A model generated the notes under the pieces. It saw only the letters and a list, made by a program, of their open reading frames with translations. It made no database searches and was not told where the DNA came from. From an uncultured Gemmatimonadales bacterium (lineage in GTDB: Bacteria > Gemmatimonadota > Gemmatimonadetes > Gemmatimonadales > GWC2-71-9), in NCBI GenBank assembly GCA_963841505.1, contig CAWJCZ010000001.1:149834-213833 (forward strand): 64,000 nt of DNA, in the 5' to 3' direction. The position numbers and the translations under genes are program-made. Positions within the stretch are counted from its first letter, which is position 1, and the number at the start of each line of letters is the position of its first letter. Of this stretch, positions 32,058 to 53,375 are shown in pieces.

Positions 32058-32070
32058 CGAAAGGAATCCC

Positions 32071-34008: not shown

Positions 34009-36050
34009 TGGGTCTCGGATTCCTGGTTCCGCTCTTTCTGGCTGGGCTCGCCGCGCTCGCGATCCCGGTGTTCATCCACCTCCGTCATCGGGAATGGGAG
34101 AAGCCGCACCGGTTCCCCTCGCTCATGTTCCTCCGCCGCATTCCGATTCGCACCGCCCGGCGGCGACGGATCACCGACTGGCTGCTCCTGCTGCTTCGCG
34201 CCGCGGCGGTCGCACTGCTGGTGCTCGCCTTCTCGCGGCCGTTCTTCCATAAGGATGCCGCCGCGGTCGCCGCGGGCCGTTCGCGTGCGGTGGTCGTGCT
34301 GCTGGATCGGTCGCTCAGCATGGGACATCGCGAGGTGTGGCCTGCCGCGCTCGATTCCGCTGCCGGAGTGGTGCGCTCCCTGGGAGCGAACGACCGGGTC
34401 GCGGTGGTCCGCTTCGACGAGCAGACCGAGCTGGCCCAGGCGCTCACCACCGATCACGGGGCCGCGCTCGCCGCGATTTCCTCGACCGCACCCACGACGC
34501 GTGGCACCCGCTACGCGGCCGGCCTCCGGGCCGCCCGCCAGGCGCTGGTGGGCGCGGGCGAGGCGGGAGAGATCGTGGTGATTACTGATCTCCAACGGAG
34601 CGGTCTGGCCGGACTTGCCGGGGTGGAGCTTCCCTCCGGCACCCTGGTGCGCACGGCGAGTGTCGCGGCGCATGACCGGAGCAACCTCTCGGTTCTGAGC
34701 GCCGAGGTGCAGCGGGTGCCGTCGGGCGATCGCACCGAGCTCCTGGTCACCGTCCGGATCCGGGCCCAGGACCTGCCGGCTCCCAGGAAAGCGCGGGTTA
34801 TGCTGAGCGTGGACGGCCGCGCCGCCGGCAGCAAGGATGCCCCGGTCTCCACCGACGGCGTGGTGACCGTGTCCTTCGACCCGGTGCCCCTGGCGGCGGG
34901 GCGGGCCCGCGCGGTGGTGGCGCTGGAGCCCGATGCGCTTCCGGCGGACGACACGTTGCGCATGGTAGTGCCCGCCGAAGCCGGTCTCCGGGTGCTGATG
35001 ATCGGGTCCCGGGGCACCGGGGGAGACGACCTCCTGTTCACCGAGCGCGCGTTAGGGATCGGGCGGGATCCCCGCTTTACCGTCGAGCGGCGCCAGGTAC
35101 TCGACGCTTCCGCGCTCCGGGGCGCCAGCGTGGTGCTCTGGCTCGAGGGCAGCGTCCCGGACCAGGTGCTGACGCCTTGGGTTCGCGAGGGGGGCGGGCT
35201 CATCGTCGGAGCGGGGGCGCGCCTGGCGGGTGAGAATGCCCTGCTTCCGGGAACCAGCAACGGGATGATCGAGCGGCTCGGCGATGGTGGCGGCGCTTTC
35301 GGCGAAGTGTCGGTGGATCACCCGATCTTTTCCCCCTTCAAGGAAGGGGGCACCGCGGTGCTCGGCGCAGCGCGGTTCCTCCGCTATCCGCGGATTGCCG
35401 CCTCGGAGGGAACCCAGGTGCTGGCGCGATTCGATGACGGCTCCCCGCTGCTGCTCGAACGGAAAGTTGGCGATGGGCGGGTGCTGCTGGTGGCCGCGCC
35501 GCTGGACAACCTCACCGGAGATTTCCCGCTTCAGCCGGGGTTTCTTCCTTTCGTCCGCCGCCTCGCGATCTACGCGGCGGGCCACCAGGTGGCGCCCCTC
35601 TGGCGCACCACCGGTGAAACCGGCATCGTTCCTGGGGGAGTGCGCGAGCCGGTCATCGCAACCCCTCGGGGCGAGCTGGTTCGTCCCGCATCGGATTCGG
35701 CGCCGTGCACCGTGGTGCTCGAGGATGCGGGCTTCTATCAGACCTATGCGAATCGCGCAGCGGGGGAGCCGATCGATGTGGTCGCGGTCAATCCACCCAA
35801 CGCGGAATCGGATCTCACCCCGGCCGACCCGCGCGAGCTCCTGATCGGGGTCCGTCAGAGCGATTCGGCGAACGCCGCGCCTCGGGAGCGACTGGCCGCG
35901 GCGGAGCAGGAATCGCAGCAGGGTGTCTGGCGCCTCCTGATCGCCGCGGTTCTGGTGCTGGTGGTGCTCGAAGCGTTCGTCGCCAATCGTGGCTGGAGAG
36001 GCACCGCAGCATCGGTGCTGCCGGCCCCGCCGGAAAGGAAGTCTCCATGA
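34005..36050 (+). CDS. BatA-type N-terminal double-TM domain + vWA-like protein
   Basis: FLVPLFLAGLAALAIPVFIHLRHR...FPSLMFLRRIP is the aerotolerance BatA_N signature. Also contains LLDRSLSM. Confidence 0.75.
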   Translation: MMGLGFLVPLFLAGLAALAIPVFIHLRHREWEKPHRFPSLMFLRRIPIRTARRRRITDWLLLLLRAAAVALLVLAFSRPFFHKDAAAVAAGRSRAVVVLLDRSLSMGHREVWPAALDSAAGVVRSLGANDRVAVVRFDEQTELAQALTTDHGAALAAISSTAPTTRGTRYAAGLRAARQALVGAGEAGEIVVITDLQRSGLAGLAGVELPSGTLVRTASVAAHDRSNLSVLSAEVQRVPSGDRTELLVTVRIRAQDLPAPRKARVMLSVDGRAAGSKDAPVSTDGVVTVSFDPVPLAAGRARAVVALEPDALPADDTLRMVVPAEAGLRVLMIGSRGTGGDDLLFTERALGIGRDPRFTVERRQVLDASALRGASVVLWLEGSVPDQVLTPWVREGGGLIVGAGARLAGENALLPGTSNGMIERLGDGGGAFGEVSVDHPIFSPFKEGGTAVLGAARFLRYPRIAASEGTQVLARFDDGSPLLLERKVGDGRVLLVAAPLDNLTGDFPLQPGFLPFVRRLAIYAAGHQVAPLWRTTGETGIVPGGVREPVIATPRGELVRPASDSAPCTVVLEDAGFYQTYANRAAGEPIDVVAVNPPNAESDLTPADPRELLIGVRQSDSANAAPRERLAAAEQESQQGVWRLLIAAVLVLVVLEAFVANRGWRGTAASVLPAPPERKSP

Positions 36051-39000
36051 GTGGAATCGATCTGGCCCTTCGCCAGGCAGTCGAGCGACTGCGGCGCCGG
36101 CGCCTGAACCGGGTGTTGCTGGAGGGCGCGGTGAAGGTGGTGGCCGCGGTGTTCCTCGCAGTGCTCGCGGCCATGGTGGTGAGCGCGCTGCTCGGGTCCG
36201 GCTCGAACTCCCTGATCGTCGCGCGGGTTATCGGATACCTGCTGATTGCGGCTGCGCTGGTGCGCTACCTGGTGGTTCCTCTGCTTCGGCGTCCTGATGA
36301 TCGCGTCCTGGCCCTCTATATCGAGGAGCGGGAGCCCGATCTCAAGCAGGCCCTCCTCAGCGCGGTGCACGAGCTGAACATTCCGGAAGAGGAGCGGGCA
36401 TCTTCGGGCCTCAGCGCCCTGGTGGTGGAGCGAGCACTGGCGGAAGTCCGGAAGCTCGAAACTGGGCCGGGCCTCGAGCGCACCCAGGTGCAGCGAGCGG
36501 CCGGGATGCTGGCGGCCGGCGTGGCGATCGGCGCGATTCTCGTGTTGGCGGGTCCCCGCGTGGTGCGCGATGCGGCCAAGGTGCTGTTCGTACCGTGGAG
36601 CGAAGCCGAAGCCGAGCCGGTGCTCGCGATCTCGGTGATCCCGGGAAATGCCGCGGTGCCTCGGGGTGGTGCGGTCCAGGTCGAAGCTTCCCTCCGGGGC
36701 TTTCAGTCCGACGGCGCCGAGCTGGTGATGCGGGCGGACACGGCGAGCGAGTGGATCCGGGTGCCGATGCAGCGCGATTCGGCGGCGGGAACCTTTTCCG
36801 CGCGGGTCTTCGATCTGGTCCGGCCCACCGAATACTTCGTCGAGTCGGAGGGGGTCAAGTCTCCCGCCTACCGACTGGGCGTCACCGATCTCCCCGCGAT
36901 TCAGCGTCTCGCGCTCACCCTGCGCTATCCGGCGTACACGAGGCTCGCGCCCGAAACCATGGATCCGGGCGGCGACGTCGCCGCGCTCACCGGAACCACG
37001 GTGACAGTCCGGAGCACGTTAACCCGCGCTGCCAAATCCGCTTCGCTCCGGCTCGATGACGGCACGGTGATTCCATTCACCGCCGACTCCGCGGGGCGTT
37101 GGAGCGGCAGCTTCCGGATCGCGAAGGACGGTTTCTACCGGGTGGACCTGGTGGCCCCCGATGGGACCCCGGTCCCCGGTTCGGTGCAGTATGTGATCGA
37201 AGCGCTGGAGGATCACAAGCCCGCGGTGCGGATCGAACAGCCGGGTCGGGACACCAAGGTGACCTCGGTGGAAGAGGTCACCATCGCCCTGGCGGCGTCG
37301 GACGACTACGGCGTGACCGGCCTCGAGCTGCTCTATTCGGTCAACGGCGGCCCGGAGCAGCGGGTCATCGTTTCCGACTCCGGAAAATCATCGGAAGACC
37401 TTCGCGCGGCCCACACACTCTTTCTCGAGGAGATGCAGCTCAAGGCCGGCGATCTGATCTCCTACCACGCCACGGCGAAAGACGGGGCGGGGAACACCGG
37501 CTCGAGCGACATCTATTTCCTGGAAGTGCGCCCCTTCGGACGGGACTACCGCCAGGCCGAATCCGGCGGCGGAGGTGGTGGCGGGGGCGGTGAATCTCCC
37601 GAAGGCCTCTCGGCGCGGCAGCGCGACGTGATCGCAGGCACGTTCAACTGGTTGCGTGACAGCGCCGCCACCGTGGCCAAGCAGCGCACCGAAGATGTGA
37701 CGACGCTGGCGATCAGCCAGGGCCGGCTCAAACAGGACGTCCAGGGAATGGTGCGCCGCCTGGTAGAGCGGAATGTGGCTTCGCGCGACACCAATTTCGC
37801 CAAGATCAAGGATGAGCTCGATGCCGCCGGCAAGGAGATGGAAACGGCGGAGCAGCAGCTCGGCACCGGGAAGGCCCGTGACGCGCTCACGCCGGAACAG
37901 CGGGCGCTTCAGCATGTTCAGCGAGCCGAAGCGGTGTACCGCGAGGTCCAGATTCAGCTTGGTGGCGGGGGAGGAGGCGGAGGGGGCGGAGCCCAGCAAT
38001 CCCGGGCCGAGGATCTTGCCGACCTCTTCGAGTTGGAGAATGACAAGCTCAAGAATCAGTACGAGCAGGTTCAGCGGGAGCAGTCCCAGGCCGCGCAGCA
38101 GGAAGTGGACGAAATCGCGGAGCGCCTGCGTCAGCTTGCCGCGAGGCAACAGCAGGAGAATGAGCGGATGCAGCGCGCGGCCGATGCCATGCGCGACCGG
38201 GTCGGGCAGCAGGGCGGTGGCGGCGGTGGTGGCGGAGGCGGAGCCCAGCGCGATCTGGCCCGGCCAGGCCGAAGAAGAAGCGCGCCGGCTGGAACGGCTG
38301 GCCCGGGAGCAGAACCAGCCTCAACTCAATGAGACCGCGCGTCAGCTCCGGGAGGCCGCCGACGCGATGCGGCGAGCCGGGAGCGACGCGGCGGGCTCCG
38401 CCGCGCAGGGCGGGAATGCGCTGGACCGGCTGCGGCGCGCGACCAAGGATCTGGAAGAATTCCCGGAGCACCGGCCTGGCGGATCAGGTCCGCGACCTCG
38501 AGCGCCGGGCCCGGCAGCTTGCGGAGCGGCAGCAGGATATCGCGGACCAGGTCCGCGGGTTAGGCTCGGCGTCTCCGGCCGAGCGGAACGAGCGGCTCCA
38601 GCGGCTCGATGAACGAAAGGACGGATTGGCTGCCGAAGTTGACCGGCTCCAGTCTGACGCCGAGCGCGCGGCGCGGGAAGGGCGCCGGGAACAACCCGGG
38701 GCCGCGGGCCGGGCGGGACAGGCCGCGGAACAGCTTCAGAGCGGGCAGGATCCGCGATCGCATCGTCTATTCCAAGGGAGTGATGCGAGGGAATTCCCCC
38801 GATTACGCCAACCAGTTCGAGGGACAGATCACCCAGGGGCTCAAGGACGCCGCGGACCGACTCCGGGATGCGGCCGGTGCGCTGGGTGAATCAACGGACG
38901 ATAAGCGCGACCGCGCGCTCGAGCAGGCCAGGAACCTGGTGCGAGGGCCTCGAGTCGACGAAGGAGAGGAGCCAGAGTGGTCAGGCCGCCGGACAGGCGG

Positions 39001-39605
39001 ACAGGCGGACAGGCGGCCAGGAGAGTGATCAGCAGGGGCAGGCCCAGGGGGGCCAGCCGGGAGCACAGCCCGGGCAAAGCCAGGGCGGAAGTCAAGGAGG
39101 TCAGCCGGGACAGGCTCAGGGCCGGCAGCAGGGAGGTCAACCCGGCGGTCAGCCGGGCCAGAACCAGGGCGGGTTAGGGCCGAATCCGATGGGCGGCGCC
39201 GGCAATCCATCGGGCGGGGCGGGCCCGATCACCGGGGAACAGGCTCGGCAGCTGAGCCGGGAGTACCGGCTGCGGCGGGAAGCCGCCGAGAGCCTGCGCC
39301 GCGAGGTGGGCAGGCAGGAGGGGGTCGAGCTGGGCGAGCTGGATCGTGCGATTCGCGGTTTGCGTCAGCTCGAGAGCGGGGAGCCGTTTCGGGATCCCCA
39401 GCGGATGGAGGATCTCCAGCGCTCCATCATCGAGGGACTCAAAACCTGGGAATTCCGGCTGTGGCGCGCGCTGACTCAGAACGGCGACAAGGGACCGGCG
39501 GTGGGGTCGCCGTCGCAGGCCCCGGCCGAGTACCGTGCGCTGGTGGAAGAATATTATCGGTCGCTGGCGCGGGAGAAGAAGCCGAACTCGAACCCGAGGC
39601 CCTAA
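36047..39605 (+). pseudogene. large DUF4175-like membrane/coiled-coil protein with three poly-Gly tracts, 4 frame breaks in the last third
   Basis: ATGA overlap start with N-terminal TM segments. Intact to about 38260, then continues through ORFs 37773..38612, 38329..38889, 38609..39028 and 38868..39605. The C-terminus AEYRALVEEYYRSLA is typical of the family. Confidence 0.6.
38991..39016 (+). repeat. tandem octamer array GGACAGGC x3
   Basis: Read directly from the sequence. It lies inside the low-complexity tail of the DUF4175-like gene. Confidence 0.75.
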
Positions 39606-39619
39606 CCCGGAGGGACATC

Positions 39620-40009
39620 ATGTCGGTCGAGAGCACTCGCAAGGCAGTGGAGCGTTACATCCAGTCGGACCACACTGACCTCAGCATGATGGCCGCCAAC
39701 GTGGTCTTCACCAACATGGCCACGGGAGCCGAGCACAAAGGGGTCGATGGAGTGAAGCAAATGCTGCACTACGTCTACCATGTCGCGTTCGACGCCAGGG
39801 CCGAAACCAGAAGCCTGGTGGTAGCGGACGGGAAAGCGGTGTTCGAGGCGGACTTCGTTGGCAAGCACATCGGGGAATTCGCCGGGGTCAAGCCGACTGG
39901 TAAGCAGGTGCGGGTTCCGCTCTGCGTGACCTACGATCTGGAGAATGACCAGATCAAGCGGGGCCGGGTGTACTGGGAGGTTCCGGCTTTTCTCAAGCAA
40001 GTGGGGTAA
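39620..40009 (+). CDS. SnoaL-like / ester-cyclase (NTF2-fold) protein
   Basis: ATG 39620. FTNMATGAEHKGVDGVKQMLHYVYHVAF...FVGKHIGEFAGVKPTGKQVRVPLCVTYDLENDQIKRGRVY is typical of ester cyclases. Confidence 0.6.
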   Translation: MSVESTRKAVERYIQSDHTDLSMMAANVVFTNMATGAEHKGVDGVKQMLHYVYHVAFDARAETRSLVVADGKAVFEADFVGKHIGEFAGVKPTGKQVRVPLCVTYDLENDQIKRGRVYWEVPAFLKQVG

Positions 40010-40014
40010 AAGGC

Positions 40015-40865
40015 TCAGCGCCCCCGACGGGTCCAGAGGACGATCACTCCGCATTGACCGAGCTGCCGCTGAATTCAGCGGGTAGCTCCGCGGCGCTGCG
40101 GTACACCTCCACCGCCTCGTACTCGTTGATAGAGAACTGCCGGCTCCAGTCGGGCGGGTATCCCAGGCCTCCGTCGGACCGATAGATCATCATGCCGTCT
40201 TCGATGATCGTCGCGAAGCACGCCCCTGACATTCTGCCAGTTCGAGTCCCTCGTGCGTAGAGCTCACGGGGGCATCTTTTGAAATCTCCGAATGGGCAGT
40301 CAGGAATCGGGGCCCACACGAAAGCGATCCCGGAGATACCTCGCAGGAGGTCCACCATTCGCCGGTGCTCGTTTCGGCGGAGCACCGTCGAGTCGATGAA
40401 CTTTCCGAATCCCATCTTCCTCCGCTCCTCGAAGGATTCGCGGATTCCCATCCCTCGCGGTGGTTGCGCTCGCGTTTTCGTCGTGACGGTGGGCAGGGTC
40501 TGGGCAGATTCGGCGGTCAGGGTGATCTCGAGGCGAGTCGTGTCGCCCTTGAGCAGGATCACCCCCCGCTCGACCGGGCGGAACCCCACTGAGCGAATCA
40601 GGAGCGTGACCGGACCGAAGGGCAACCCGGTGAGCACGAAATAACCGGCCTTGTCGGTCGTGGTCTGACGCCCTGATCCCTGGACGAGCAGTTCAATTCC
40701 GGGAAGGGGAGCCCCGCTTGAGTCACGGCGGACCGTTCCGCTCAGCGTGCCCTGCTGGGCAAGGAGCGCTCCGGAAGATTGCAGCAGAGCTCCAGCAAGG
40801 AGCCACCTGGAAGCAGCCATCCACCGTCCTGAAAGTCCGCCCGGTGAACTTACCGGCTGGAACAC
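40015..40865 (-). CDS. carboxypeptidase-regulatory-like domain protein, frame break near 40052
   Basis: Signal peptide. GTLSGTVRRDSSGAPLPGIELLVQGSGRQTTTDKAGYFVLTGLPFGPVTLLIRSVGF (CarboxypepD_reg). The expected C-terminus CGVIVLWTRRGR-stop (40015) is reached only after a 1-nt shift. Confidence 0.6.
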
Positions 40866-40928
40866 CAGGCGGCAATTCTGGTGGGTTGGTCCTGAGAGGG
40901 ATACTGCTATGACAAGTTATAGCCTGGC

Positions 40929-41093
40929 CTAACCCGGGGCCTCTGCCTTCTTCCGGAGCCGCAGCGCGCTTAGGTCAGGGCCGCCTTGAGCACGGCTTCC
41001 TCTTCCGATGCGATCGAACGAGCACAGCTCTCGCGCCTCGCCGCCCGGAGCATGATCACCGGTGCCTCCCGGAAGCAGGTCGGGTAGCAAGGG
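40929..41093 (-). pseudogene. orphan copy of the lhr 3' end
   Basis: The minus strand reads ...SIASEEEAVLKAALT* and ...LRLRKKAEAPG-TAG, paralleling the real lhr end (FAPEEEHAIKAALIR...RLRKKAPAPG-TAG at 42846). The DNA at 40928-40965 is near-identical to 42845-42885. Confidence 0.45.
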
Positions 41094-41149
41094 CGGGGGG
41101 TCTGCAGGCCTTGCAAAATTACCCTAGTGATGCCATTTTGGGACTCAAT

Positions 41150-42334
41150 ATGGCGCTAATAGGTAGATTTCTCCAGCTCCCTCCGGGGAGCTTCTTCTCT
41201 TCGGACCCCGGGGCACCGGTAAGACGACCTGGCTTGAGCTTCAACTCCCCGGCGCGCTGATGGTGAATCTGCTCGAGCCAGAAACCTATCGGAGCCTGAC
41301 CGCCCGGCCGGAGCGGCTTCGGGAGCTGGTGCTGGGAACGAAGAGTCGGGATGTGGTAGTGGATGAAGTACAGCGGATTCCTGACCTTCTGCATGTGGTT
41401 CACGACCTGATCGGGCGGCGAACGTCGCATCGATTCGTGCTGACCGGCTCGAGTGCGAGAAAGCTGCGGCGCGGGGGGGTGAATCTACTGGGTGGGCGCG
41501 CAGTGGTCCGGACCCTGCATCCTTTTCTTGCAGCGGAACTGCCGAGCTTCGACCTGCCCCGGAGCTTGGCGATCGGGCTGTTGCCTCTGGTGGTTACCTC
41601 GCCGACTCCCGAAGATGTCCTGAGAGCCTACGCCACGCTGTACCTGGAACAGGAGGTTCAGGCGGAAGGGATGGTTCGCAATATTGGGAGCTTCGCCAGG
41701 TTTCTCGAGGTGGTCAGTTTTTCCCATGGCTCGGTCCTCAATCTCAGCAACGTAGCGCGGGAGAGCGCGGTCAACAGGAAGACCGTGGAAGGGTATCTCG
41801 AAGTCCTGGAAGACCTGTTGCTGGCGTACCGAGTTCCTGTGTTCACGCGCCGGGCAAAGCGGGAGACCTCGGTCCATCCCAAGCTCTATCTCTTCGATAC
41901 TGGAGTGTTTCGTTCGCTCCGCCCGAGTGGGCCGCTCGACCGTCCGGAGGAGATCGAGGGAGTGGCTCTGGAGGGACTGGTGGCGCAGCACCTCCGCGCC
42001 TGGGCGGCGTACGGAGGTGAGAAGGACGCGCTGTTTTTCTGGAGAACCCGGTCCGGGGTCGAAGTGGATTTCGTGCTGCATGGGAAGTCGGGATTGTACG
42101 GGATCGAAGTCAAGAACACCGATGCGGTTCGCCCTGAGGATCTGCGGGGCCTGCGGGCATTCGGGGAGGATTATCCCGAGGCCCGCCTGGTACTCCTGTA
42201 TCGTGGGACGCGAGCGCCTTCGGATAAAGAACGTGCTTTGCTTGCCGGTCAGAGAGCTGCTGGAGAACCTGCGGCCCGGGGCCAAGCCGGTGCCGTCCGA
42301 ATCCTCACCGTCCCCGCCTGGTATGGTACAATGA
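41150..42334 (+). CDS. AAA+ ATPase with DUF4143 domain (COG1373-like), two frame breaks (~41197, ~42208)
   Basis: MALIGRFLQLPPGSFF | LFGPRGTGKTTWL (Walker A). DUF4143-like region ...LLAYRVPVFTRRAKRE...PKLYLFDTGV. The tail LLYRG|RERLRIKNVLCLPVRELLENL is in a third frame. Confidence 0.65.
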
Positions 42335-42359
42335 CCCCGCACAACTGGATCCAATCGAG

Positions 42360-42842
42360 GTGAAGGGGGCTCCAGACCCTCCTCGTGGCATCGGAATCAG
42401 AGAGTCTATTGAGGAACGCAAAAAGTTAGGTTTCGGCAAATTCGTGACCACCGAGTTCCTTAGAGCAAATGAGCATAGACGGGTGGGGGACATTCTCCGA
42501 GGTATCCCCGGACTATGGCTGATTTGGTACGCCGATACCCTGCGGGGGGTGCCCCGAGCGGTTGGCATTGGGGCCCAGCGTGAACCTCCTGAGCTGAGAG
42601 CAACGACGACTCGCCGTCCATTTGGAATCCGGGGGATGTGCTGGTCGTCGGTCTTCCTCGATGGCATGATCCTCTATCGCTCCTGGAGCAACGCCCCGCC
42701 CCCGGATTGGAGCAAGGACTTCTACGTAAATGAACTCGATGCGATAGAAGTCTATCGAAGCGCCGCAGAGCTACCTTCGGAATTCGGCGGTACCGTGGGT
42801 GAATGCGGCGTGATCGTGCTTTGGTCTCGACGAGGAGGATAG
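42360..42842 (+). pseudogene. 5'-truncated, inverted paralogue of gene 40015..40865 (C-terminal half only)
   Basis: PPRGIGIRESIEERKKLGFGKF...LDAIEVYRSAAELPSEFGG..CGVIVLWSRRGG parallels PPRGMGIRESFEERRKMGFGKF...YEAVEVYRSAAELPAEF. It lacks the signal peptide and CarboxypepD_reg domain. Visibly lower GC with rare codons. Confidence 0.5.
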
Positions 42843-42845
42843 ACC

Positions 42846-45800
42846 CTAACCCGGGGCCGGCGCTTTCTTCCGGAGCCGCGGCGGCCGATCGGGCGATTCT
42901 GCGCCCGCCCGGCAATCCCCAGATACATCCGGAGGCTCGGACTGACCGCCCGCCTGATCAAGGCGGCCTTGATCGCGTGTTCCTCTTCCGGTGCGAACTC
43001 CTTGAGAAACCGGGTCTCGCCCGACTCGAGCACCGCCACCGGCACTCCGTCTTCGAACAGGATCCGGTTCCGGGCCAGCGCCGGAATCCGCTCGCCCGGA
43101 GTCACGATCCCCACCAGGTTGAGCGGGTCGGCCGCTGAAATGCTGACCAGCGTTCTGCCCCGCTCTCCCGCCGAGCTGCCCGGAGCGCGACCACCGCCTC
43201 GGGCAGCGCGAACTGCTCGCCGGTCACCCCCGCCACGAACCGCCCGCCCCGAATCTCGCCTCGCGCTTCCAGGCGGCGATAAACCATCATCAGCTCGCGC
43301 CACGGAACCGTGAAGGGCTCCCGGGTCAGCAGCTTGTGGAACACCACCCCATACCGCTTGAGCAGGATCCTCGCATACCGCTCGATCGCCTTGGGATGGT
43401 TCCTGGGGCTCCCGGGGCTCCGGGTCCTGACCAGTGACCAGCGCCCGGCGCGATCGATCCCGAACGGGGCGACCCGGTGCCGCCTCGGACCGCCGGTGAG
43501 GGGCTGGCGCTTGGCCGACGGGGTGAGCAGCGCCCGTAACCCGGCAAAACTGTCCGAGCGTCACCAGCCCGGCCGCCGCGAGCTCGGCCAGCGCCTGCTC
43601 GACCTGGGTCGCCAGGAGCCCCGATTCCGCCACGATCTCCGGGAAGAACGAAGCTCCCCGCCGCTCCAGCACATCCCGTACCGCCTCACCATAACTCGAC
43701 AACACCGGCTCTCCCTCGCCTCCACCAGCTCACGCCACAGGTCGGCGTTGCTGCGCTGGAGCAGAGCCATCGGCGTGCTGCGGATCGGGCGCGCCGCCGG
43801 CCCATCTCCATTCTCCCTGATGACGCTCGGCAGTGACAGCCGGCCCCAGGTAACCCGGCCGGTGAGACACAGCATGTCGAGCAGCGCGGGATCGTATTCT
43901 TCGCAGCGGGTACCAAGGACATCTGCCTCCCAGGCCGATGCCGCGGGACCTCGTAGCCGTCGAGCTGCTCGATGATCGAGGCGAGCCCTTCGAGCCCCGC
44001 GACCTGCTCGCCCGGCTCAACCCTCTGCCACCCAAACAGAAATCGCTGGAAGTCCGCCGCGTTGACCGGCGCGATCTCGGCGCGGAGCCGGTTCAGGGTG
44101 TAGCGATGAATCCGGGCCAGCAGGCGGCGTTCGCACCATTCGAGGTCCGAGGTGTGGGTGTGGGTTGAGGAAGAACGAGGGGTAAAGCGGCCCCGGAGGA
44201 TCACCCCTTCGCTCTCGAGCGCGATCAGGGCGGCGTCCACCACCGGAACATCGACGCCGAGGGAGGCGGCGAGCTCGCGTGCGGTCGTCGGGCCGACGAT
44301 CTCGAGCCGGCCCCGGAGCAGCTCACGCACCGCGCCGTCTTCCGGCAACGCCCGCGCCAGCGGGACTCGCTCCGCCGCCACCCAAAGTCCCGACCCGCTC
44401 GGCCCGACGGTCCCGGACCAGCTCGTCGAACCAGGGCTCCCAGGAACATTCCGTTCCGCCCGGTCCGACCTTCCGCCTCGGTCAGGAAGCCCGACACCAG
44501 CAACGCATCGTGCAGCTCGTCGGCGTGGATCACTTCGGGCCAGGCCTCGTCCCGCACCCGTGCGATCGCATCGGCATCCAGCGCGCCGAGATCATCAGCG
44601 GAGCCGGGCTCGAAGGCGCGCCGCGTCTGCACCGCCTGGGTGCGGCGCTCCTCCAGCGGCGCATCGTCCAGGAAGGCGTAGGGTCGCGCGTTCAGGATCT
44701 CATGGGAGAGCGGCGACGGCTCGGGTAGGTCGCGCGCGACGCAGCGGATCTCCCGCTCTCGATCTGTCGAGCATCTCTTCGAGCCCGGTCAGGTCCATCG
44801 CCTCGTGCAGGCAGTCCTCGATGGTCTGCTCCACCAGCGGATGGCTCGGGAATCTCCCGATCGCCCGGAATGTTCTCCAGGCACGCTGCTGCATCGGGAA
44901 ACGCCGCCGCGAGCAGATCCTCCGACTCCATCCGCTGAAGCTGGCGGCGCCACCTTCTTCCCGCTCCGATATCGCGGCACCGCGAGCGAGATGTTCGCGT
45001 TCCAGCGCCAGCGGGTCCCGAACACCGGCGCATCGAGAAAAGCCTGGATCAGGATTTCTTGCGCGGTCTTCGGGTTCAGGAACCGGAAGACCGAATCGAG
45101 CGGGAAGGAATGCTGCGGTCCGAGGGAGAGCAGCACCGCGTCTTCGGTCGCCGCGGCCTGGAGCTCGAAGTTGAACGTGCGGCAGAACTTCTTCCGGAGT
45201 GCGAGCCCCCACGCCTTGTTGATCCGGCTTCCAAAGGGCGAGTGCAGCACCAGCTGCATCCCGCCCGCCTCGTCGAAGAATCGCTCGGCGATCAGGGTCT
45301 CCCGGGTCGGCAGGTCGCCCAGCAGGCGATACGACTCGCCCAGGTACTCCACGATCTGGAGCGCGCCGGATTGGGGAATGCCCTGGCTCGATCAGCCATT
45401 CCACCGCCTCCGCGCGGTCTTCCAGCCGCTCCTCGATCTCGCGGCGGAGCTCGGAGACTTCGGCGGAAAGCTCGTTGCTCCGGCCCAGCGCTTCGCCGAG
45501 CCAGAAGGGCACGGTGGGCGGCTGGCCCCGCGCGTCTTCCACCCGCACGGTGCCGCGCTCGATCCGCAGCATGCACCACGCCGTGTTGCCGAGCTGGAAG
45601 ATGTCGCCCGCGCTGCTCTCGATCGCGAAGTCTTCGTTGATGGTGCCGACGAAGGTCCCTTCCGGCTCGACGACCACCCGATAGTCGGCGACATCGGGGA
45701 TGGCCCCGCCCGAGGTGAGTGCGGTGAGCCGCGCTCCTCGGCGTCCCCGGATGCGTCCATTCACCGTGTCATGGTGGATCAGCGACCCCGCCGGCCGCGC

Positions 45801-47180
45801 CGGGTCACGAACCCGTTGGCCAGCATCTCGACGACCGCGTCGAACTGCTCGCGTGTCAGCCCGCGATAGGGATAGGCCTGGGGAATCGCTCGAACAAGCG
45901 CCTCAGTGGACCACTGCTCGGCGGCGGATTCGGCGGTGATCTGCTGGGCCAGCACATCGAGCGGCCGCTCCTGCATCACGATCCGGTCGAGGTCGCCCTT
46001 GCCGACCGCGCGGAGCAGCGCGGTGCATTCGACCAGCTCGTCGCGGGTGAGGGGGAACAGCCGTCCCTTCGGCGTTCCGCGCACCGTATGGCCGGACCGG
46101 CCGACCCGCTGGAGGAAGGTGGCGATCCGCCGGGGCGAGCCAAGCTGGCAGACCAGGTCCACATGGCCGATGTCGATGCCCAGCTCGAGCGAGGAGGTCG
46201 CGACGAGCGCCCGTAACCCGCCGTTCTTCAGCCGATCCTCGGCGTCGAGCCGGGTTTCCTTGGCGAGACTGCCGTGGTGGGCGGTAACCGCCTCGTCGCC
46301 CAGCCGGTCGGCGAGCTGGCGGGCCGCCCGCTCGGCGAGCCGCCGGGTGTTCACGAAGATCAGGGTGGTCTTGTGCTGCCTGATGAGCTCGAGTCAGCCG
46401 GTCATAGACCTCGCTCCAGACTTCGGCCGACATCACCGCCTGGAGCGGCGAACCGGGCAGTTCGAGCTGGAGGTCCGGGCCGGCGGCGATGGCCTTCATC
46501 GATGATGGTCGCGCGTGCCCGCCGCTCCCGGTCAGCCATTCGGCCACCATCTCGATCGGCTTCTGGGTCGCCGAGAGCCCGATGCGCTGGAGCTTCCGTC
46601 CGGCGACGTGGTCGAGCCGCTCCAGACTCAGCGCGAGGTGCGCGCCCCGGCGGGTCTCCACCACCGAGTGGATCTCGTCCACGATCACGGTGCGCGCGGT
46701 GCGGAGCATCTCCCGGCTCCGCTCCGAGGTGAGCAGCAGGTAGAGCGACTCCGGCGTGGTCACCAGGATATGCGGCGGGGTCTTGAGCATCGCGAGCCGC
46801 TCGGCGGGCGTGGTGTCGCCCGAGCGGACCGCCGCGGTGAGGTGCGGAGCGTTCCTAACCCGGCTTCCTCGGCGAGCTTCCGGATCTCGCGGCGGGGCTC
46901 GGCCAGGTTCTTGTGGATGTCGGCGCTCAGCGCCTTGAGCGGAGAGACGTAGATGACCCGGACTTCGTCGGGCAGCGGGCCTTCGAGCGATTCACGGAGG
47001 AGCTGATCGAGCGAGATCAGGAATGCGGCGAGGGTCTTCCCGGAGCCGGTCGGGGCGGCGATGAGGGTATTCTGGCCGGCCCGGATGGACTCCCAGCCGC
47101 GGGACTGCGCGGCGGTCGGCTGCCCGATCCGTTTCCGCGAACCAGTTTGAGATTACGGGGTGGAAACGAGTCAGCGGCAT
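42846..47180 (-). pseudogene. lhr: Lhr-family large ATP-dependent helicase, roughly 19 frame breaks
   Basis: FHPVISNWFAE...IAAPTGSGKTLAAF (motif I), VIVDEIHS (DEAH-type), [31 protein letters not shown], then DEAD-associated C-terminal segments. These are spread over many overlapping minus-strand ORFs in all three frames. Confidence 0.8.
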
Positions 47181-47263
47181 AGCTTGAAAAGATACGAGCG
47201 CAGAGATGACGCAGATGAGACGGGTCCCGAATCCGCCTCATCCGTGTCACCTGTGGACCAGCA

Positions 47264-48759
47264 TCAATAGCGGTAATGCTCGGGCTTGTACGGGCCCTCG
47301 ACCTTGACCCCGATGTACTCGGCCTGATCGGGCCGGAGCTGGGTCAGCTTCACGCCCAGCTTGTCGAGATGGAGCCGAGCCACCTGCTCGTCGAGGTGTC
47401 TTGGGCAGGATGTAGACCTGCTTCTGGTACTTCGACGCGTACTTGTGCAGCTCGATCTGCGCCATCACCTGGTTGGTGAAGCTGGCCGACATCACGAAGC
47501 TCGGGTGGCCGGTGGCGCAGCCCAGGTTGAGGAGCCGTCCCTCGGCGAGGATCAGCACGCTGTGGCCGTCGGGGAAGACGAATTCGTCGTACTGCGGCTT
47601 GATATTGATCCGCTTGATCCCCTTGATCTTCTTGAGCCCGGCCATGTCGATCTCGTTGTCGAAGTGGCCGATGTTCCCGACGATCGCCTTGTCCTTCATC
47701 CGCGCCATGTGCTGGCGCGGTGATCACGTCGTGGTTTCCGGTCGCGGTGATGAACACGTCGGCGGTCTCGACCACGTCGTCCACGGTGGTCACCTGGAAC
47801 CCTTCCATCGCCGCCTGCAACGCGCAGATCGGATCGATCTCGGTGATGACCACCCGGGCTCCCTGGCCCTTGAGCGCCTGGGCGCATCCCTTGCCGACCT
47901 CGCCGTAGCCGCAGACCACCGCGACCTTCCCGGAGAGCATCACGTCGGTGGCGCGGTTCAGCCCGTCGATGACCGAGTGGCGGCAGCCGTAGATGTTGTC
48001 GAACTTCGACTTGGTCACCGAGTCGTTCACGTTGATGGCGGGGAAGAGCAGGGTGCCCTTCTCCATCATCTCGTAGAGCCGCCGCACCCCGGTGGTGGTC
48101 TCTTCGGAGACGCCCACGATGCCGGCCGCCACCCTGGTCCAGCGTCCCGGGTGCTTCTTCTGCTCGGCGCGGAGGAGGTCCAGGATCACGCCCCACTCCT
48201 CGGGCTCCTTGTCGGCATCGAAGCCCGGGACCTTGCCGGCCTTCTCGAACTCGGCGCCCTTGTGGATCAGGAGGGTGGCGTCGCCGCCGTCATCGAGCAG
48301 CAGGGTCGGGCCCGACCCGTCGGGCCACATGAGGGCCTGGTCGGTGCACCACCAGTATTCCTCGAGGGTTTCGCCCTTCCAGGCGAAGACCGGCGTGCCC
48401 TGCGGGTTAGCCGGCGTGCCGAGCTTCCCGACCACGACCGCGGCAGCGGCCTGGTCCTGGGTCGAGAAGATGTTGCAGGAGACCCACCGGACGTCGGCAC
48501 CCAGCTCCGTCAGGGTTTCGATCAACACGGCTGTCTGTATGGTCATGTGGAGCGAGCCCATGATCTTCGCCCCGGCCAGGGGCCGCTCCCCGGCCAGCTC
48601 GGCGCGGAGGGCCATCAGGCCCGGCATTTCCTGCTCGGCGAGGCGGATCTCCTTGCGCCCAAGCTCGGCGAGCGAAAGGTCCCGCACCTTGAATGCGGGC
48701 CGGCCCGATTCGCGGGCCGGGGTGAAGGCGTCGGGCGGAAGGGTCGCTGTGGACGTCAT
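47264..48759 (-). CDS. ahcY: adenosylhomocysteinase, two frame breaks (~47715, ~47405)
   Basis: [63 protein letters not shown], and C-terminus [15 protein letters not shown] at 47264. ORFs 47350..48804 and 47247..47708 plus a third frame are involved. Confidence 0.9.
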
Positions 48760-48821
48760 GCGGCATGAGCTCCGTCGAAGTAGTTGAAAACTAACATCCG
48801 ACACACTTTCATTCAGGTCTT

Positions 48822-49355
48822 ATGCAAATCCGATTCCTCGCCCTGATGGCCGCGCTCTCTGCCGGTGGCACCGGCCTGCTCACCGCCCAGGAACAACCCA
48901 AGCCGGTCGAGAAACCCCAGCCTCCGAAGAAGCCCACGGTGGACTTCTCGAAATTCAAGTTCATGGAAGGGTGCTGGCGCGGCCAGACCGACAAGGACGA
49001 CTTCGTCGAGGAGAACTGGACTTCGCCGTCGGAAAACCTGCTCCTCGCGACCACCCGGTATCTCACCAAGGATCGCGCCACCGGATACGAATTCACCCGG
49101 ATTCAGTGGGTCGATTCCATGGTGGTGTTCGCCGCGTCGAGCGATGGCAAGCCGGAGGACGTCTATCCGCTCAAGACCCTGGCGGATGAGTACGTCCTGT
49201 TCGAGAATCCCGCCAAGAAGGGATTTCCCACCCGCATCATCTACCGCATGGCGTCGGACGGCTCGCTGATTCCCCGGAACGAAGGAGAGGGGCCGAGCAT
49301 CGAGGTGCGCTTCGAGCGGGTCAAGTGCCCGGGAGCGGACATCAAGATCAAATAG
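48822..49355 (+). CDS. secreted hypothetical protein (DUF6265-like)
   Basis: Signal peptide. FMEGCWRGQTDKDDFVEENWTSPSENLLLATTRYL...YEFTRIQ pattern. The family call is tentative. Confidence 0.5.
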   Translation: MQIRFLALMAALSAGGTGLLTAQEQPKPVEKPQPPKKPTVDFSKFKFMEGCWRGQTDKDDFVEENWTSPSENLLLATTRYLTKDRATGYEFTRIQWVDSMVVFAASSDGKPEDVYPLKTLADEYVLFENPAKKGFPTRIIYRMASDGSLIPRNEGEGPSIEVRFERVKCPGADIKIK

Positions 49356-49364
49356 CCCGCCGAA

Positions 49365-51220
49365 TCAGGGCGAATCGCGACGCTGCTCGGTCGGAGTGCG
49401 GCGGAGCCACTCCTCGATGGCAGGAACCAGCTTCCCGGCGAGCTGCTCCGGCGCGCTCCGGGCGCCATGGTGCGGAAGGAGCGAAGGTAGCGCTGGGCCC
49501 GGGTGTCGAAGACGGCGACGAAGAGCATCAGGCTGTCCCGCCGGGATGTGAGCGAGCTGCGGAGCACCGCTGAGGCCCCCAGGGTCATCCCGAGTACCTG
49601 ATCGCTGCCGAACTGCCGCTCCAGCTCGTCGAGCCGGCCTCCACTCAGCACGTGCACGTTGTTCTGCCGGCGAAGGGTCTGGACCAGGGAGTCGGTCACC
49701 GCCGACGCGACATCGCCAGATCACGCTCCCGGCTCACATCCACCACATCGAGCACCACCAGACGATGGGGGCCGCGCGGTGCTGGCCGGCCGGGGGAGCG
49801 GCGAGCTCGGGTGGGAAGCGCCACGCCAGGGCGCTGGTGGGAATTCTGCCCCGGAGGTTCCGCATCACGCGAGGGTCCGCAGCACCGAATCGCCGATGGC
49901 GTGTTCGACCAGGATCCGGACCGAATCCATTCCTTCAGGGTGACCCCGGGGCCGGTGCGGATGGTGATCGTGGCGTTCCGGCCACCACTTCCCCACCGCG
50001 TCGGGAGCCACCGGAGCGGGGCGGCGCCTGGGTGGCCGCCTTCCCGGACTGCTGGTTCGCGGTCCCGATGGGTGCCGGACTCACCGTGCCTCGCTGCTCC
50101 AGGATGCGGCGGGCAAACGCGGCGGCGATGGCTTCCGAATCAGCGCGGGTTAGGGCGCCCTGGGTCGAAGTCCGGATCGAATCCGGCGCCGGCGCGACCG
50201 GCTCGGGCCTGGCTTTCCGGTGCGCCCCCAGCATGGCGTAGGTGCTCAGGCTGGCCGCCAGGAGCATGATCAGCGTGCTGCCCACGAGGACCTGCGCCGG
50301 GGCGCCTTGGGCATGTGGGCGAGCCCCAGTGCGCGACTGATCGCGGGCATCCCGCCCGAGGTGAGCCGCAGCCTGGACAGGGCGCCCAGCAGCTCGTCCG
50401 CGGAACTCCAGCGCGACTCAGGAGCCTTCTCCAGGCACCGCATGATCAGGTCGGAGAGATCAGAGGGGATATCGGAGCGGCGAAGGTGGGGCGGGGTGGG
50501 CCGCTCGGTCATCTGCCGGGCCAGGGTCTGCTGGGGCGAGGAGCCGCTGAACGGGGAGGACCCCGAGAGCAGCTCGTACCCGAGAAGTCCCACCGCGTAG
50601 AGGTCGATGCGGTGGTCGGCCGCTGGGTCGGCGGCAAGCTGCTCCGGCGCCATGTAGGCCGGGGTACCCACCGCGATCCCGATCGTGGTGGCGGCGGTTC
50701 CGGGGAGCGCCTCGCTGATCGCCTTGGCCACCCCGAAATCGGTGACCAGAGCGTGATTCCGCTGGAGCAGAATGTTCTCCGGCTTGATGTCGCGGTGGAT
50801 CAGCCCGCGTCCGTGAGCGTACGCGAGGGCATCCACCACGTCCTGGAGAATGGAGACGACGGTGGCCGCCGGCAGCCGCTTGTCACGATCCAGGCGGGAG
50901 CGCAGGGTTTCGCCCTCGACCAGCGGCATCGTGTAGTACAGGATGTCGCCGACCTGACCCGCGGTGAGCAGCGGAACGATGTGGGGGTGCTGGAGCCGGG
51001 CGGCGAACTGGATCTCCCGGCGAAACCGCTCCCGGTTGACCCCGGCGGTGAGCTCGGGTGGCAGGACCTTGATGACCACCCGGCGGCCGAGGGCGCGTTC
51101 GGTCCCGACGAACACGCGGCTCATCCCGCCCCCGATTTCGCGCTCGATCTCGTAGGTCGAGTCGAGCGCTCCCCGGAGGGTGCTCAGCAGTCCCGGATCG
51201 GGAGAAGCAAAGGATGACAT
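49365..51220 (-). pseudogene. Ser/Thr protein kinase with TM and TolB-N/LpoB-like extracytoplasmic domain, at least 4 frame breaks
   Basis: The kinase domain is intact (HRDIKPENILL, DFGVAK, GTPAYMAPE) in ORF 50270..51220. The TM segment LIMLLAASLSTYAML and downstream RLVVLDVVDVS...AVTDSLVQTLRR... lie in other frames (ORFs 49935..50285, 49241..49699, 49365..49724). Confidence 0.7.
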
Positions 51221-51286
51221 GGAGGCGCCTAAACCTATACGACGCGCCAGGGCTTCAGGTTGTTGCGTCCCGACCCGGACGCCGTC

Positions 51287-51562
51287 CTAGACCTGTGCCG
51301 CCTCCCTGGACTCCCGCTGCCCGGCCAGCATTCGCTCGGTGAAGTCGAGCCGGGATTCCAGCTCGTTGATCCGCCGCTGAAGGTCCTCGATCACCTGATC
51401 GCGTTGCTCGAGCGCGGAATCCAGCCGGGAGTCTTCCTGCTGGTTTCCCCGCTTGCCACGGACTCTCCGCCTGGCCTCTCCCCCCTGACCGAACATCCAT
51501 CGCATCATGGGACCGATCCAGAAGATCGCGAAGAGAACGAACAGCCATGTCGGGAATCTCAT
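51287..51562 (-). CDS. small single-TM protein with coiled-coil tail (PspB-like architecture)
   Basis: The ATG at 51562 forms an ATGA overlap with the PadR stop. TM segment FPTWLFVLFAIFWIGPMM followed by DQVIEDLQRRINELESRLDFTERML. Confidence 0.5.
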   Translation of the reverse strand: MRFPTWLFVLFAIFWIGPMMRWMFGQGGEARRRVRGKRGNQQEDSRLDSALEQRDQVIEDLQRRINELESRLDFTERMLAGQRESREAAQV

Positions 51563-52158
51563 TCGACGCCTCCCTTGTTCCATTCGGCTTCGATTTCAGT
51601 CGCGGCCCGATTCAGAATCTCGACGATTTTCGGTACGGCGGGATGTCCCGGTCCAAACCGCCAGGCCCGCTTGTACGAGGCGCGTGCGACTCGGCCGAAG
51701 GCCTGGTGCAGGTCGCCCATGGGCCCCCCGGCAACGTCCCGCACCGTGTCGCGAAGCCGGTCGAAAATGCTCTCGACCGCGTCCTTGTGCTCGGTGAGGA
51801 AGGCCTCGCCCTCGGGGGTGATGTGGTAGACTTTCTTGCCGTTCTCTTCCACCACCCTGACGTACCCTTGATCCTCGAGGAGCTGGAGCGTCGGGTAAAC
51901 GGTTCCCGGCGACGCGGTGTAGCACCCCGCGAGACGCTCTTCCAGGGCTTTGATGACTTCGTAGCCGTGACGGGGCTTTTCCTTGAGTAGGCGGAGGATG
52001 ACAAACTTGACCTCTCCCGACTCAAACATCGGAGCCCGCCTGCGGTGGCGGTTCCGGTGACGTCCCGACCCAGCCCGGAATCCGAAGACGCCGGGCAGGT
52101 CGAACGCGAAGAAGTCAGAAAAACCGCCTAACCCCCAGTCGTCATGTGACTTACGCAT
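51559..52158 (-). CDS. PadR family transcriptional regulator
   Basis: VKFVILRLLKEKPRHGYEVIKALEERLAGCYTASPGTVYPTLQLLEDQGYV is the PadR winged-helix signature. Confidence 0.85.
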   Translation of the reverse strand: MRKSHDDWGLGGFSDFFAFDLPGVFGFRAGSGRHRNRHRRRAPMFESGEVKFVILRLLKEKPRHGYEVIKALEERLAGCYTASPGTVYPTLQLLEDQGYVRVVEENGKKVYHITPEGEAFLTEHKDAVESIFDRLRDTVRDVAGGPMGDLHQAFGRVARASYKRAWRFGPGHPAVPKIVEILNRAATEIEAEWNKGGVE

Positions 52159-52238
52159 AAGATACCTGGTGAGATGTTACGGACGATAGCTCTTACGATA
52201 TATCGGCAAATCTAGTTTCGAAAGGGGGTTCCAGGCCC

Positions 52239-53375
52239 GTGCTTGTCGTCGCTGGTCTGCTCCTGGCCGGAAGCCTTCTGATCTGGCTCGATCTCTGGTT
52301 CGGTCTCCGGCAGCTGCCCCAGCTTCTGAGTCTCCCCGCCCAGCCGCACGGCCCGATGGTTTCGATCATCGTTGCCGCTCGCGATGAAGCCCGAGGGATC
52401 GCTGACGCGGTGGAGTCGTTCCTGGCTCAGGACTACGAATCGCTCGAGGTCATCGGCATCGACGATCGCTCCAGCGATGGCACCGGCGGGATCCTCGACC
52501 GGCTGGCCCGGGAAGACCCGCGGTTGCGGGTTATGCACGTCACCGACCTCCCGGCCGGCTGGCTCGGTAAGAACCACGCGCTCGCCATGGGCGCCGGGGC
52601 CGCTCGGGGCGAATGGCTCCTCTTCACCGACGGCGACGTGGTGCTGGAACCGGGGGCGGTGGGCCGCGCCGTGGGCCATGCCACGGCGAGCGGATTCGAC
52701 CATGTCACCATCCTGCCCGATCTCCTGGTGCCCGGCTACTGGTTGCAGGTCTTCGTGACCGCCTTCGCCGTCTGGGGCCTTGCCGCGGCCCGACCCTGGC
52801 GGGTTGGGAAACCGGGAAGCCAGCGCCATGTCGGGGTCGGAGCCTTCAACCTGGTTCGCGCTTCCTCCTATCGCGGTGCGGGGGGGCACGAGGCGATCCG
52901 GCTCCGCCCCGATGACGACCTGAAGCTTGGCAAGTTGCTGCTGCGGAGTGGCGCCCGCACGACGGTTCTTCGCGGGCTCCGCGGCGTCAGGGTGGAATGG
53001 TACAGCACGCTCGGAGCCGCGATCGACGGCCTGATGAAAAACTCGTTCGCGGTGGTGGAATACCACGCCACGCTCGCTTTGGGCGGCGTGCTGCTCTATC
53101 TCGTGGCGGGCCTGGGGCCGCTCGGGGTGATTATCGCCGGCGGTGCCGCCGCCAAGGCTCTGGGTGCGGCGGCGCTGGTCTTCCAGGTGCTGGCGGCCTG
53201 GACCATGAGCAGGGAGGTGCCGACCCGGGCCGCTGCGGCGCTGATGTTCCCGGCCGGCTGTCTCCTGCTTGGCTGGGTGGTGCTTCGCGCGACCGTGCTG
53301 ACCCTCGGGCAAAAGGGAATCCGCTGGCGGGGAACCTTCTATTCGCTGGAGGAGCTGCGGCGGAACCGGATCTGA
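52239..53375 (+). CDS. glycosyltransferase family 2, membrane-bound
   Basis: VSIIVAARDE...IGIDDRSSDGT...GKNHALAMGAGAARGEWLLFTDGDV (DxD context), followed by C-terminal TM segments. Confidence 0.75.
   Translation: MLVVAGLLLAGSLLIWLDLWFGLRQLPQLLSLPAQPHGPMVSIIVAARDEARGIADAVESFLAQDYESLEVIGIDDRSSDGTGGILDRLAREDPRLRVMHVTDLPAGWLGKNHALAMGAGAARGEWLLFTDGDVVLEPGAVGRAVGHATASGFDHVTILPDLLVPGYWLQVFVTAFAVWGLAAARPWRVGKPGSQRHVGVGAFNLVRASSYRGAGGHEAIRLRPDDDLKLGKLLLRSGARTTVLRGLRGVRVEWYSTLGAAIDGLMKNSFAVVEYHATLALGGVLLYLVAGLGPLGVIIAGGAAAKALGAAALVFQVLAAWTMSREVPTRAAAALMFPAGCLLLGWVVLRATVLTLGQKGIRWRGTFYSLEELRRNRI

Follow-up and report, generated by a model that had tools for sequence, protein, structure and literature searches.

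The window analysed here, a stretch of 64,000 nucleotides from an uncultured Gemmatimonadales bacterium, raises the question of why its reading frames are broken again and again in some places and hardly at all in others, and whether such breaks are mutations carried by the organism or errors of the assembled sequence. The frame breaks are almost certainly consensus errors. More specifically, we put at roughly 0.93 the probability that they arose in low-support stretches of a long-read metagenome assembly rather than by mutation in the organism, the platform and the depth being the parts of this reading that we infer.

Breaks were mapped with a frameshift-aware protein-to-DNA aligner written for the analysis, the queries being intact orthologues from close Gemmatimonadales relatives: the genome MFD04944.bin.1.208 (loci L001, L004 and L008; 72–96% amino acid identity), a 1.55 Mb JGI contig (L006) and a second reference set (L002). 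At 67% GC, a GC3 frame plot proved too noisy for counting breaks and was replaced first by a codon-model Viterbi segmentation and then by the orthologue-guided alignment. Where conservation is poor, pairwise alignment with the relative at the nucleotide level calls too many compensating gap pairs; it served for sequence context only, and break counts were not taken from it. False positives were gauged by running the same aligner, with unchanged settings, on ~35 kb of clean genes, some of them only 56–72% identical to the reference; it called no break.

Orthologue-guided alignment placed 51 frame breaks in the 55.5 kb (55,465 nt) of testable coding DNA in the window, distributed over the following segments and genes.

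38264–50292, no strand: main high-error segment, 37–38 frame-breaking indels of 1–2 nt, edges within the DUF4175 and kinase genes
11127–12956, no strand: second high-error segment, 9 breaks, 5 per kb
13171–32308, no strand: clean territory, 11 genes matched along their whole length to the relative's proteins, no break
50293–63502, no strand: clean territory, ~15 genes, no break
2017–2037, forward strand: isolated break in a GFO_IDH_MocA oxidoreductase gene (1729–2965)
4824–4827, forward strand: isolated single-base insertion in an amidohydrolase gene (3909–5613)
~9501, forward strand: probable isolated break in a gene for a 158-aa hypothetical protein (9128–9576)
32309–32314, forward strand: isolated single-base insertion in a MoxR AAA_3 ATPase gene (32071–33106)

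The main segment, for which the first-pass annotation had counted about 34 frame changes between 38.2 and 50.3 kb, contains 38 (37–38) by alignment, that is, 3.5 per kb of its 10,968 tested nucleotides. A second cluster of about 8 had been described in 10.3–13.1 kb, and 9 breaks were found there. Between the two, positions 12957–38263 hold a single break (22.2 kb tested; ~0.04 per kb), and there is none in the 12.5 kb tested of 50293–63502. The long break-free stretches of the earlier reading were recovered as well, with no breaks on orthologue-guided alignment in 13171–32308, 32315–38263 and 50293–63502; so were its single breaks at ~2035, ~4828 and ~32313, to which the probable fourth at ~9501 has to be added. 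Scanning the window for Rfam families and tRNAs gave no match, and a low-GC insert at 21.9–24.4 kb had no Pfam match either.

The occurrence of 38 of the 51 events in 10,968 of the 55,465 tested nucleotides (binomial P ~5e-17) bears out the claim that the breaks are clustered and excludes a uniform error process; the scan statistic of 38 compares with a maximum of 25 over 20,000 simulations. Within the main cluster, by contrast with the window as a whole, the spacing of the events is consistent with a uniform rate (KS p = 0.25), which agrees with a step change in error rate. Indeed, the observed indel density is piecewise constant, passing along the contig from 0.04 to 3.5 to 0 per kb, and both transitions lie inside genes, as can be seen from the gene content of the two patches.

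36047–39605, forward strand: DUF4175 gene, first 2.2 kb clean, then 6 breaks (38264, 38457, 38743, 38945, 38980, 39005)
39620–40009, forward strand: SnoaL-like gene, short, intact within the error segment, 89% identical to L001
40021–40820, reverse strand: CarboxypepD_reg gene, 1 break (1 nt missing) at ~40057
41114–42280, forward strand: AAA_14/DUF4143 ATPase gene, 2 breaks, at 41199 (in the Walker A motif FGPRGTGKT) and 42211
42855–47180, reverse strand: lhr (large helicase-related), 17–18 breaks
47267–48759, reverse strand: ahcY (S-adenosylhomocysteine hydrolase), 2 single-base insertions, at 47715 and 47399
48822–49355, forward strand: DUF6265 gene, intact, 87.6% identical
49368–51220, reverse strand: Ser/Thr protein kinase gene, catalytic half (51220–50293) clean, all 9 breaks in 49458–50292
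10284–11644, reverse strand: sigma-54 response regulator gene (ntrC-like), 1 break, in the Walker A motif
11671–13056, reverse strand: histidine kinase gene, 8 breaks

The DUF4175 gene passes from no break in 2.2 kb to 6 in 0.74 kb, and the Ser/Thr kinase gene from none in its first 928 nt to 9 in the next 834 nt, 5 of these 9 being placed identically by both references. Gene by gene, the tallies made from the bare sequence stood for CarboxypepD_reg (1), the DUF4143 ATPase (2) and ahcY (2), came close for lhr (~19) and were compatible with the result for the kinase (at least 4), and for DUF4175 the 4 breaks claimed fell short of the 6 found. Downstream of lhr, inside the patch, lies a strain-variable hotspot at which relatives carry different cargo, and the block contains an insertion, possibly recent, at 40.9–42.9 kb, formed by the DUF4143 ATPase gene and a truncated paralogue. 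Repeats at the patch edges that might explain an assembly join were looked for and none was found; the only repeat of note is internal to the patch, where the 3′ end of lhr recurs as a relic second copy.

The damage itself is confined to indels. All 47 events of the two patches are insertions or deletions of 1–2 nt, with +1 and –1 events equally frequent (19:19). The first-pass annotation had located several breaks in short homopolymers, which would be expected if they reflected systematic basecalling errors at homopolymers or methylation motifs, of the classic Nanopore or 454 type; among long-read errors, indels in homopolymers are the best known (PMC9262707), and a G5 run at 2031–2035 had been noticed near one break. 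This proposal did not hold up. Within 6 nt of the breaks the longest run has a mean length of 2.63, as against 2.73 at random positions (P = 0.79), and runs of at least 4 accompany 8% of the breaks and 15% of random positions. The break attributed to the G5 run is placed by alignment near 2017–2023 and so not necessarily in the run, and G7 runs at 26792, 52880 and 63496, all in clean regions, are without any break. Moreover, errors driven by context would not be restricted to two patches, and this explanation thus appears very improbable. The balance of insertions and deletions, together with the absence of homopolymer enrichment, implies random rather than systematic errors, and these look context-independent, like those of raw reads.

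Once the frames are corrected, the proteins prove to be preserved. Comparison with the orthologous genes of close relatives, which the first-pass annotation had recommended, yielded full-length patch proteins that align end to end with their orthologues at 83–96% identity, clean neighbours showing 72–93%, and complete Pfam architectures were regained. The corrected DUF4175 product is 87.9% identical to its L001 orthologue, and AhcY reaches 95.8% across all 496 residues. Lhr becomes a protein of 1440 aa, 88.7% identical to P0001, with every Lhr Pfam domain present; the corrected sequence retains 563 of 569 near-invariant residues, and the 6 that are violated fall within the range of 0–11 seen in intact homologues. 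No in-frame stop occurs in the 3338 frame-corrected codons of 38264–50292 or in the ntrC and HisKA genes, and alignment of the patch to orthologues revealed no frame-breaking indel exceeding 2 nt and, apart from ordinary in-frame codon gaps, no large deletion.

Such features are difficult to reconcile with genuine regional decay, in which blocks of 12 kb and 2 kb of the chromosome would have turned into pseudogenes and be gathering frameshifts. Reductive genomes, such as those of Mycobacterium leprae or of recently host-restricted symbionts, do have pseudogene-rich regions, and the many neighbouring broken genes seen here resemble them, as does a block that includes a possibly recent insertion. 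True pseudogenes, however, also show nonsense mutations, larger deletions and relaxed amino acid conservation, and their decay follows gene units, all of which are absent here. Simulated decay left all codons free of stops with a probability of 0.0055 when each indel was accompanied by 5 substitutions and of less than 0.0005 when it was accompanied by 10, and thus at most 0.0055 from 5 substitutions upwards. Conserved Lhr positions show no excess of change, the breaks begin and end in the middle of genes, the SnoaL-like and DUF6265 genes are intact within the patch, and the housekeeping gene ahcY is broken in spite of the near identity of its product to the orthologue. Of the two alternatives raised by the first-pass annotation, locally poor consensus is accordingly supported and regional gene decay is not; we consider the latter very unlikely, if marginally less so than systematic basecalling error.

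A comparable patch was found in another contig. The nearest relatives of the source contig, which is 535 kb long, are Microflora Danica Nanopore MAGs, and no conspecific assembly, which would have shown the intact sequence directly, was present among the collections searched, the best Lhr relative being 89% identical and the JGI relatives at most 81%. L005 (contig_77914) comes from sample ERZ25039533, which also contains contig_16002 of MFD04944.bin.1.208, a MAG obtained by Nanopore-only Flye assembly with one Medaka round (PMC12313526). The same pattern recurs in this related Nanopore contig: 39 breaks are packed into 2.8 kb (16278–19077; ~14 per kb) without any stop, and the flank at 5.3–15.7 kb has none. 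The genes hit are those for DUF4159, MoxR, DUF58 and BatA, which are clean in our window, and an equivalent patch striking other genes again argues against decay. Taken together, the tiny and balanced indels, the lack of stops, the conserved proteins, the edges inside genes and the L005 patch indicate consensus error rather than decay.

The L005 patch also bears on a real and very recent burst of clustered indels, such as a single episode of error-prone repair or of break-induced synthesis might produce, which would have been fixed before substitutions could follow and would have left dozens of fresh frameshifts in genes including ahcY and lhr. A burst of this kind would account for indel-only damage whose sharp boundaries ignore gene borders. 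It would nevertheless require a viable lineage to carry 38 frameshifts disabling the broadly conserved housekeeping gene ahcY and many others, a second independent tract at 11–13 kb and a third in the unrelated contig L005. The balanced, context-free spectrum of +1 and –1 events matches sequencing noise and, to our knowledge, no known polymerase signature. Of all the explanations considered, this one seems to us the least probable.

A different artefact deserves more weight, even though it remains unlikely as the explanation. Co-existing strains or diverged haplotypes may have been collapsed onto one path, so that misaligned reads caused the polisher to introduce indels; in that case one would expect local depth to be heterogeneous but at a normal or high level. 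At least three related populations at 84–90% amino acid identity occur in these soils, and the patch holds both the strain-variable hotspot downstream of lhr and the relic lhr copy. Collapsed alleles are documented to yield INDEL errors and apparent frameshifts (Cosentino et al. 2021, PMC8445201): as would be the case here, the frameshifts appear locally, where the consensus mixes non-identical molecules, and vanish when haplotypes are separated, although that study concerned a diploid eukaryote and the present case would involve putative co-existing strains of soil bacteria. Such a collapse does not sit easily with an indel density that stays uniform across 12 kb, highly conserved genes like ahcY included. 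Nor does divergence jump in a mosaic fashion along the corrected sequence, and the error rate of 0.35–0.5% is nearer to single-read noise than to misalignment induced by variants.

A foreign or chimeric origin of the patch was also considered and gave no clear signal. Identity to the relative at four-fold sites is 62% inside the patch and 56% outside, a difference within the gene-to-gene scatter of 44–71%. The slightly higher value inside the patch counts against the consensus-error account and is unexplained, though within the range of individual genes.

Patchy poor consensus thus remains the favoured account, and the way in which it may have arisen can be outlined. The contig most likely derives from a long-read metagenome assembly of Nanopore type, a platform suggested by its relatives, and its consensus would have been built on very few reads in two stretches, of ~12–13.7 kb at 38.3–50.3 kb and ~2–3 kb at 11.1–13.0 kb. 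Low local depth, as we infer, would be the immediate cause; the thin support could mean that only a sparse bridge of reads spanned these stretches or that the path followed a variant from a minor strain. Polishing would then have been unable to outvote the random insertions and deletions of 1–2 nt typical of single reads, and adequate depth elsewhere would have given an essentially error-free consensus. In the real genome lhr, ahcY, the kinase gene, the DUF4175 gene and the two-component pair would be intact and under purifying selection. Nanopore consensus quality does depend on coverage, near-finished genomes needing ~40-fold (PMC9262707). The frameshift and truncated-gene artefacts of long reads (Nanopore or PacBio CLR), as measured by the IDEEL test (Sereika et al. 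2022, PMC9262707), are similar in that small indels break conserved ORFs, that their severity depends on coverage, and that they disappear on polishing or on reference-guided correction of the frame. They differ in that the classic form consists of homopolymer indels spread genome-wide, whereas the indels described here show no dependence on homopolymers and occupy only two patches of one contig, both with sharp boundaries.

The consequences are practical. Error in a long-read MAG contig can be strongly patchy, from at most ~0.04 per kb in the flanks to 3–5 per kb in the patches and ~14 per kb in L005, so that genome-wide quality scores can mask stretches that are locally unusable. The density of frameshifts per window, measured against close orthologues, provides a cheap and read-free flag for such stretches. 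Gene callers will list lhr, ahcY and the genes for the Ser/Thr kinase, the DUF4175 protein, the DUF4143 ATPase and the two-component pair as fragments or pseudogenes in this MAG, and any gene loss or metabolic gap deduced from these calls would mislead. For the bacterium itself, the finding is accordingly a warning about data quality, of practical value, rather than a statement about its biology.

The window (G+C content, 67%) carries genes whose best matches lie in uncultured Gemmatimonadales, and its initial segmentation with a codon-usage Viterbi model already revealed many same-strand frame switches in 38–50 kb and 10–13 kb. The nearest relative used as reference was the MAG MFD04944.bin.1.208 (CAVSLV010000002.1, contig_16002, 479,654 bp), whose loci L004, L001 and L008 are collinear in gene order with the window from ~13 kb to 63.5 kb; a JGI contig of 1.55 Mb (L006) is collinear with 1.7–13 kb. 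Each orthologue was compared with its window region using a custom protein-to-DNA aligner in which the frame may slip by 1 or 2 nt. Sequence divergence by itself does not make it call frameshifts, since the clean stretches include genes with only 56–72% identity to the reference that gave no calls. Over 55,465 tested nucleotides, 51 breaks were called.

Frame-breaking indels relative to the orthologue, by orthologue alignment
38264–39005, DUF4175 tail: 6 breaks
40057, CarboxypepD_reg gene: 1 break
41199 (Walker A motif) and 42211, DUF4143 ATPase gene: 2 breaks
47132–42900, lhr (large helicase-related): 18 breaks
47715 and 47399, ahcY (S-adenosylhomocysteine hydrolase): 2 breaks
50292–49458, Ser/Thr protein kinase gene: 9 breaks
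11127, sigma-54 response regulator gene (second cluster): 1 break
11680–12956, histidine kinase gene (second cluster): 8 breaks
near 2017, 4824, 9501 and 32314: isolated breaks
13171–32308, 32315–38263 and 50293–63502: no break called

An independent reference set (L002) gave 17 breaks in lhr, 2 in ahcY and 9 in the kinase gene. The first-pass annotation had come close to these counts (~19 for lhr, 2 for ahcY, at least 4 for the kinase and about 8 for the second cluster as a whole); its single breaks at ~2035, ~4828 and ~32313 were recovered, and the one near 9501 has to be added to them. The clustering that it proposed is real. Breaks per kb amount to 0.38 in 1–11.1 kb, 5.0 in 11127–12956, 0.04 in 12957–38263, 3.5 in the main patch (38264–50292) and 0 in 50293–63502. 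The binomial probability of at least 38 breaks in the main patch is 5e-17, and none of 20,000 simulations reached the observed scan statistic. Inside this patch the breaks are compatible with a uniform rate (KS p = 0.25, spacing CV 1.16).

The patch edges disregard gene borders. The DUF4175 gene runs for 2.2 kb without breaks and then has 6 in 0.74 kb, and the first 928 nt of the kinase gene are unbroken, with 9 breaks in the following 834 nt. Because the edges fall inside these two genes, their placement fits an effect tied to physical position along the assembled molecule and not to genes under selection. The kinase gene (49368–51220) is one of three paralogues, the other two lying in tandem within 14146–18223 with a repeat spacing of 2032 nt; the three have catalytic-core DNA segments in common (repeat families D1, D4 and D5).

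All events are insertions or deletions of 1 or 2 nt, and net +1 and net −1 shifts in the main patch stand at 19:19. Nucleotide alignments give contexts such as GCG[C]CAG, AAG[A]CAC and ACG[CT]CCG. The location of breaks in short homopolymers, previously read as a sign of indel error, did not hold up: the longest run lying up to 6 nt from a break has a mean length of 2.63, as against 2.73 at random positions of the same region, and G7 runs in clean regions are untouched. The indels are therefore context-free, resembling the noise of individual long reads and not systematic homopolymer error.

Genuine regional gene decay had been offered as one explanation of the clusters. Spontaneous bacterial mutation consists mainly of substitutions, and real neutral decay should therefore leave nonsense codons and eroded conserved residues. 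Contrary to this expectation, the main patch contains no in-frame stop in 3338 codons after frame correction. When random substitutions were placed on the corrected coding sequence, the simulated probability of finding no stop codon was 0.0055 at 5 substitutions per indel and <0.0005 at 10. The corrected alignments extend to the orthologue's final residue for Lhr (1443/1443; 88.7% identity), AhcY (496/496; 95.8%) and the kinase (620/620; 85.5%), matching the 72–93% identity of unbroken neighbour genes. Aligned with 120 Lhr homologues, corrected Lhr differs at 6 of 569 near-invariant columns, and intact homologues at 0 to 11. Complete Pfam architectures are regained for Lhr, AdoHcyase, AAA_14/DUF4143, NtrC-type and HisKA/HATPase proteins. 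Decay is thus very improbable, and a real mutational burst is, in our estimation, even more so.

A second instance comes from L005 (ena:ERZ25039533:contig_77914), a contig from the same sample as MFD04944.bin.1.208, which encodes proteins ~90% identical to those of the window. Aligned with the relative's proteins, its positions 16278–19077 show 39 frame-breaking indels in 2.8 kb (~14 per kb), insertions being dominant, next to a 10-kb flank (5.3–15.7 kb) with no breaks; no stops were found. The broken genes (DUF4159, MoxR, DUF58 and BatA) have essentially clean counterparts in the window. The L005 patch is thus a recurrence of patchy error at another place in that assembly. For the MFD MAGs, Nanopore-only metagenomes were assembled in Flye and received one round of Medaka polishing (PMC12313526). 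Nanopore consensus quality depends on coverage, near-finished sequence requiring about 40-fold (PMC9262707), and collapse of diverged alleles is a documented source of indels and apparent frameshifts (PMC8445201).

Locally poor consensus, strain collapse included, had been the other explanation proposed, and it is strongly supported (probability about 0.93) by indel-only lesions, the lack of stops, conserved products, edges inside genes and the L005 patch. The window contig is most likely a long-read consensus in which two stretches presumably had too few supporting reads, or reads that disagreed with one another; read-level random indels, at 0.35–0.5%, would have outlasted polishing there, read support having probably sufficed elsewhere. 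Mixed-strain collapse or an unpolished chunk is a plausible alternative to low depth. It is also plausible that the main patch follows a path through a minor-strain variant, because it holds a strain-variable spot downstream of lhr. At four-fold sites, identity to the relative (62% inside the patch, 56% outside) gives no clear sign of a different ancestry.

At that spot, a 39-nt direct repeat (40928–40966 and 42845–42883, 87% identical) belongs to a degenerate duplicate of the final ~130 nt of lhr, stop codon included. Between the true lhr 3′ end and this relic lies a 1.9-kb block with the DUF4143 ATPase gene and the 3′ half of a CarboxypepD_reg paralogue (42360–42842). The relatives carry different cargo: an APH/M23/aminotransferase gene and NYN in L001, and a PIN toxin–antitoxin and BBE in L002 and L003. 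The segment 40928–42883 resembles a hotspot of insertion or replacement, or possibly a strain-variant junction.

Other features of the window were also recorded. A 2.5-kb block of low G+C content (21900–24400; 54–58% versus ~67%) separates efp (21335–21898) from the HGSNAT_cat gene (24333–25448), which adjoin in L004 and L005. It holds only short ORFs (≤186 aa), two with signal-peptide-like N-termini, matched no Pfam, tRNA or Rfam entry, and may have been acquired as a small island. Oxidoreductase and amidohydrolase genes flank a toxin–antitoxin pair (RelB antitoxin with a YafQ/ParE-type toxin; 3049–3659); syntenic L006 has an alpha-L-fucosidase gene at this site. The 8-nt unit GGCGGACA forms short tandem arrays at 31250, 38988, 62288 and 3960–4006; they occupy gene starts or the sequence immediately before them, and also the DUF4175 tail. 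The arrays are kept at orthologous sites of the close relative (L004 15750, L008 12505, L001 21625), and none turned up in about 80 Gemmatimonadota loci that are less closely related.

The clustered breaks reflect data quality and not biology. What is gained is a corrected version of the affected genes, along with a caution that errors can be spread very unevenly along contigs of this kind.
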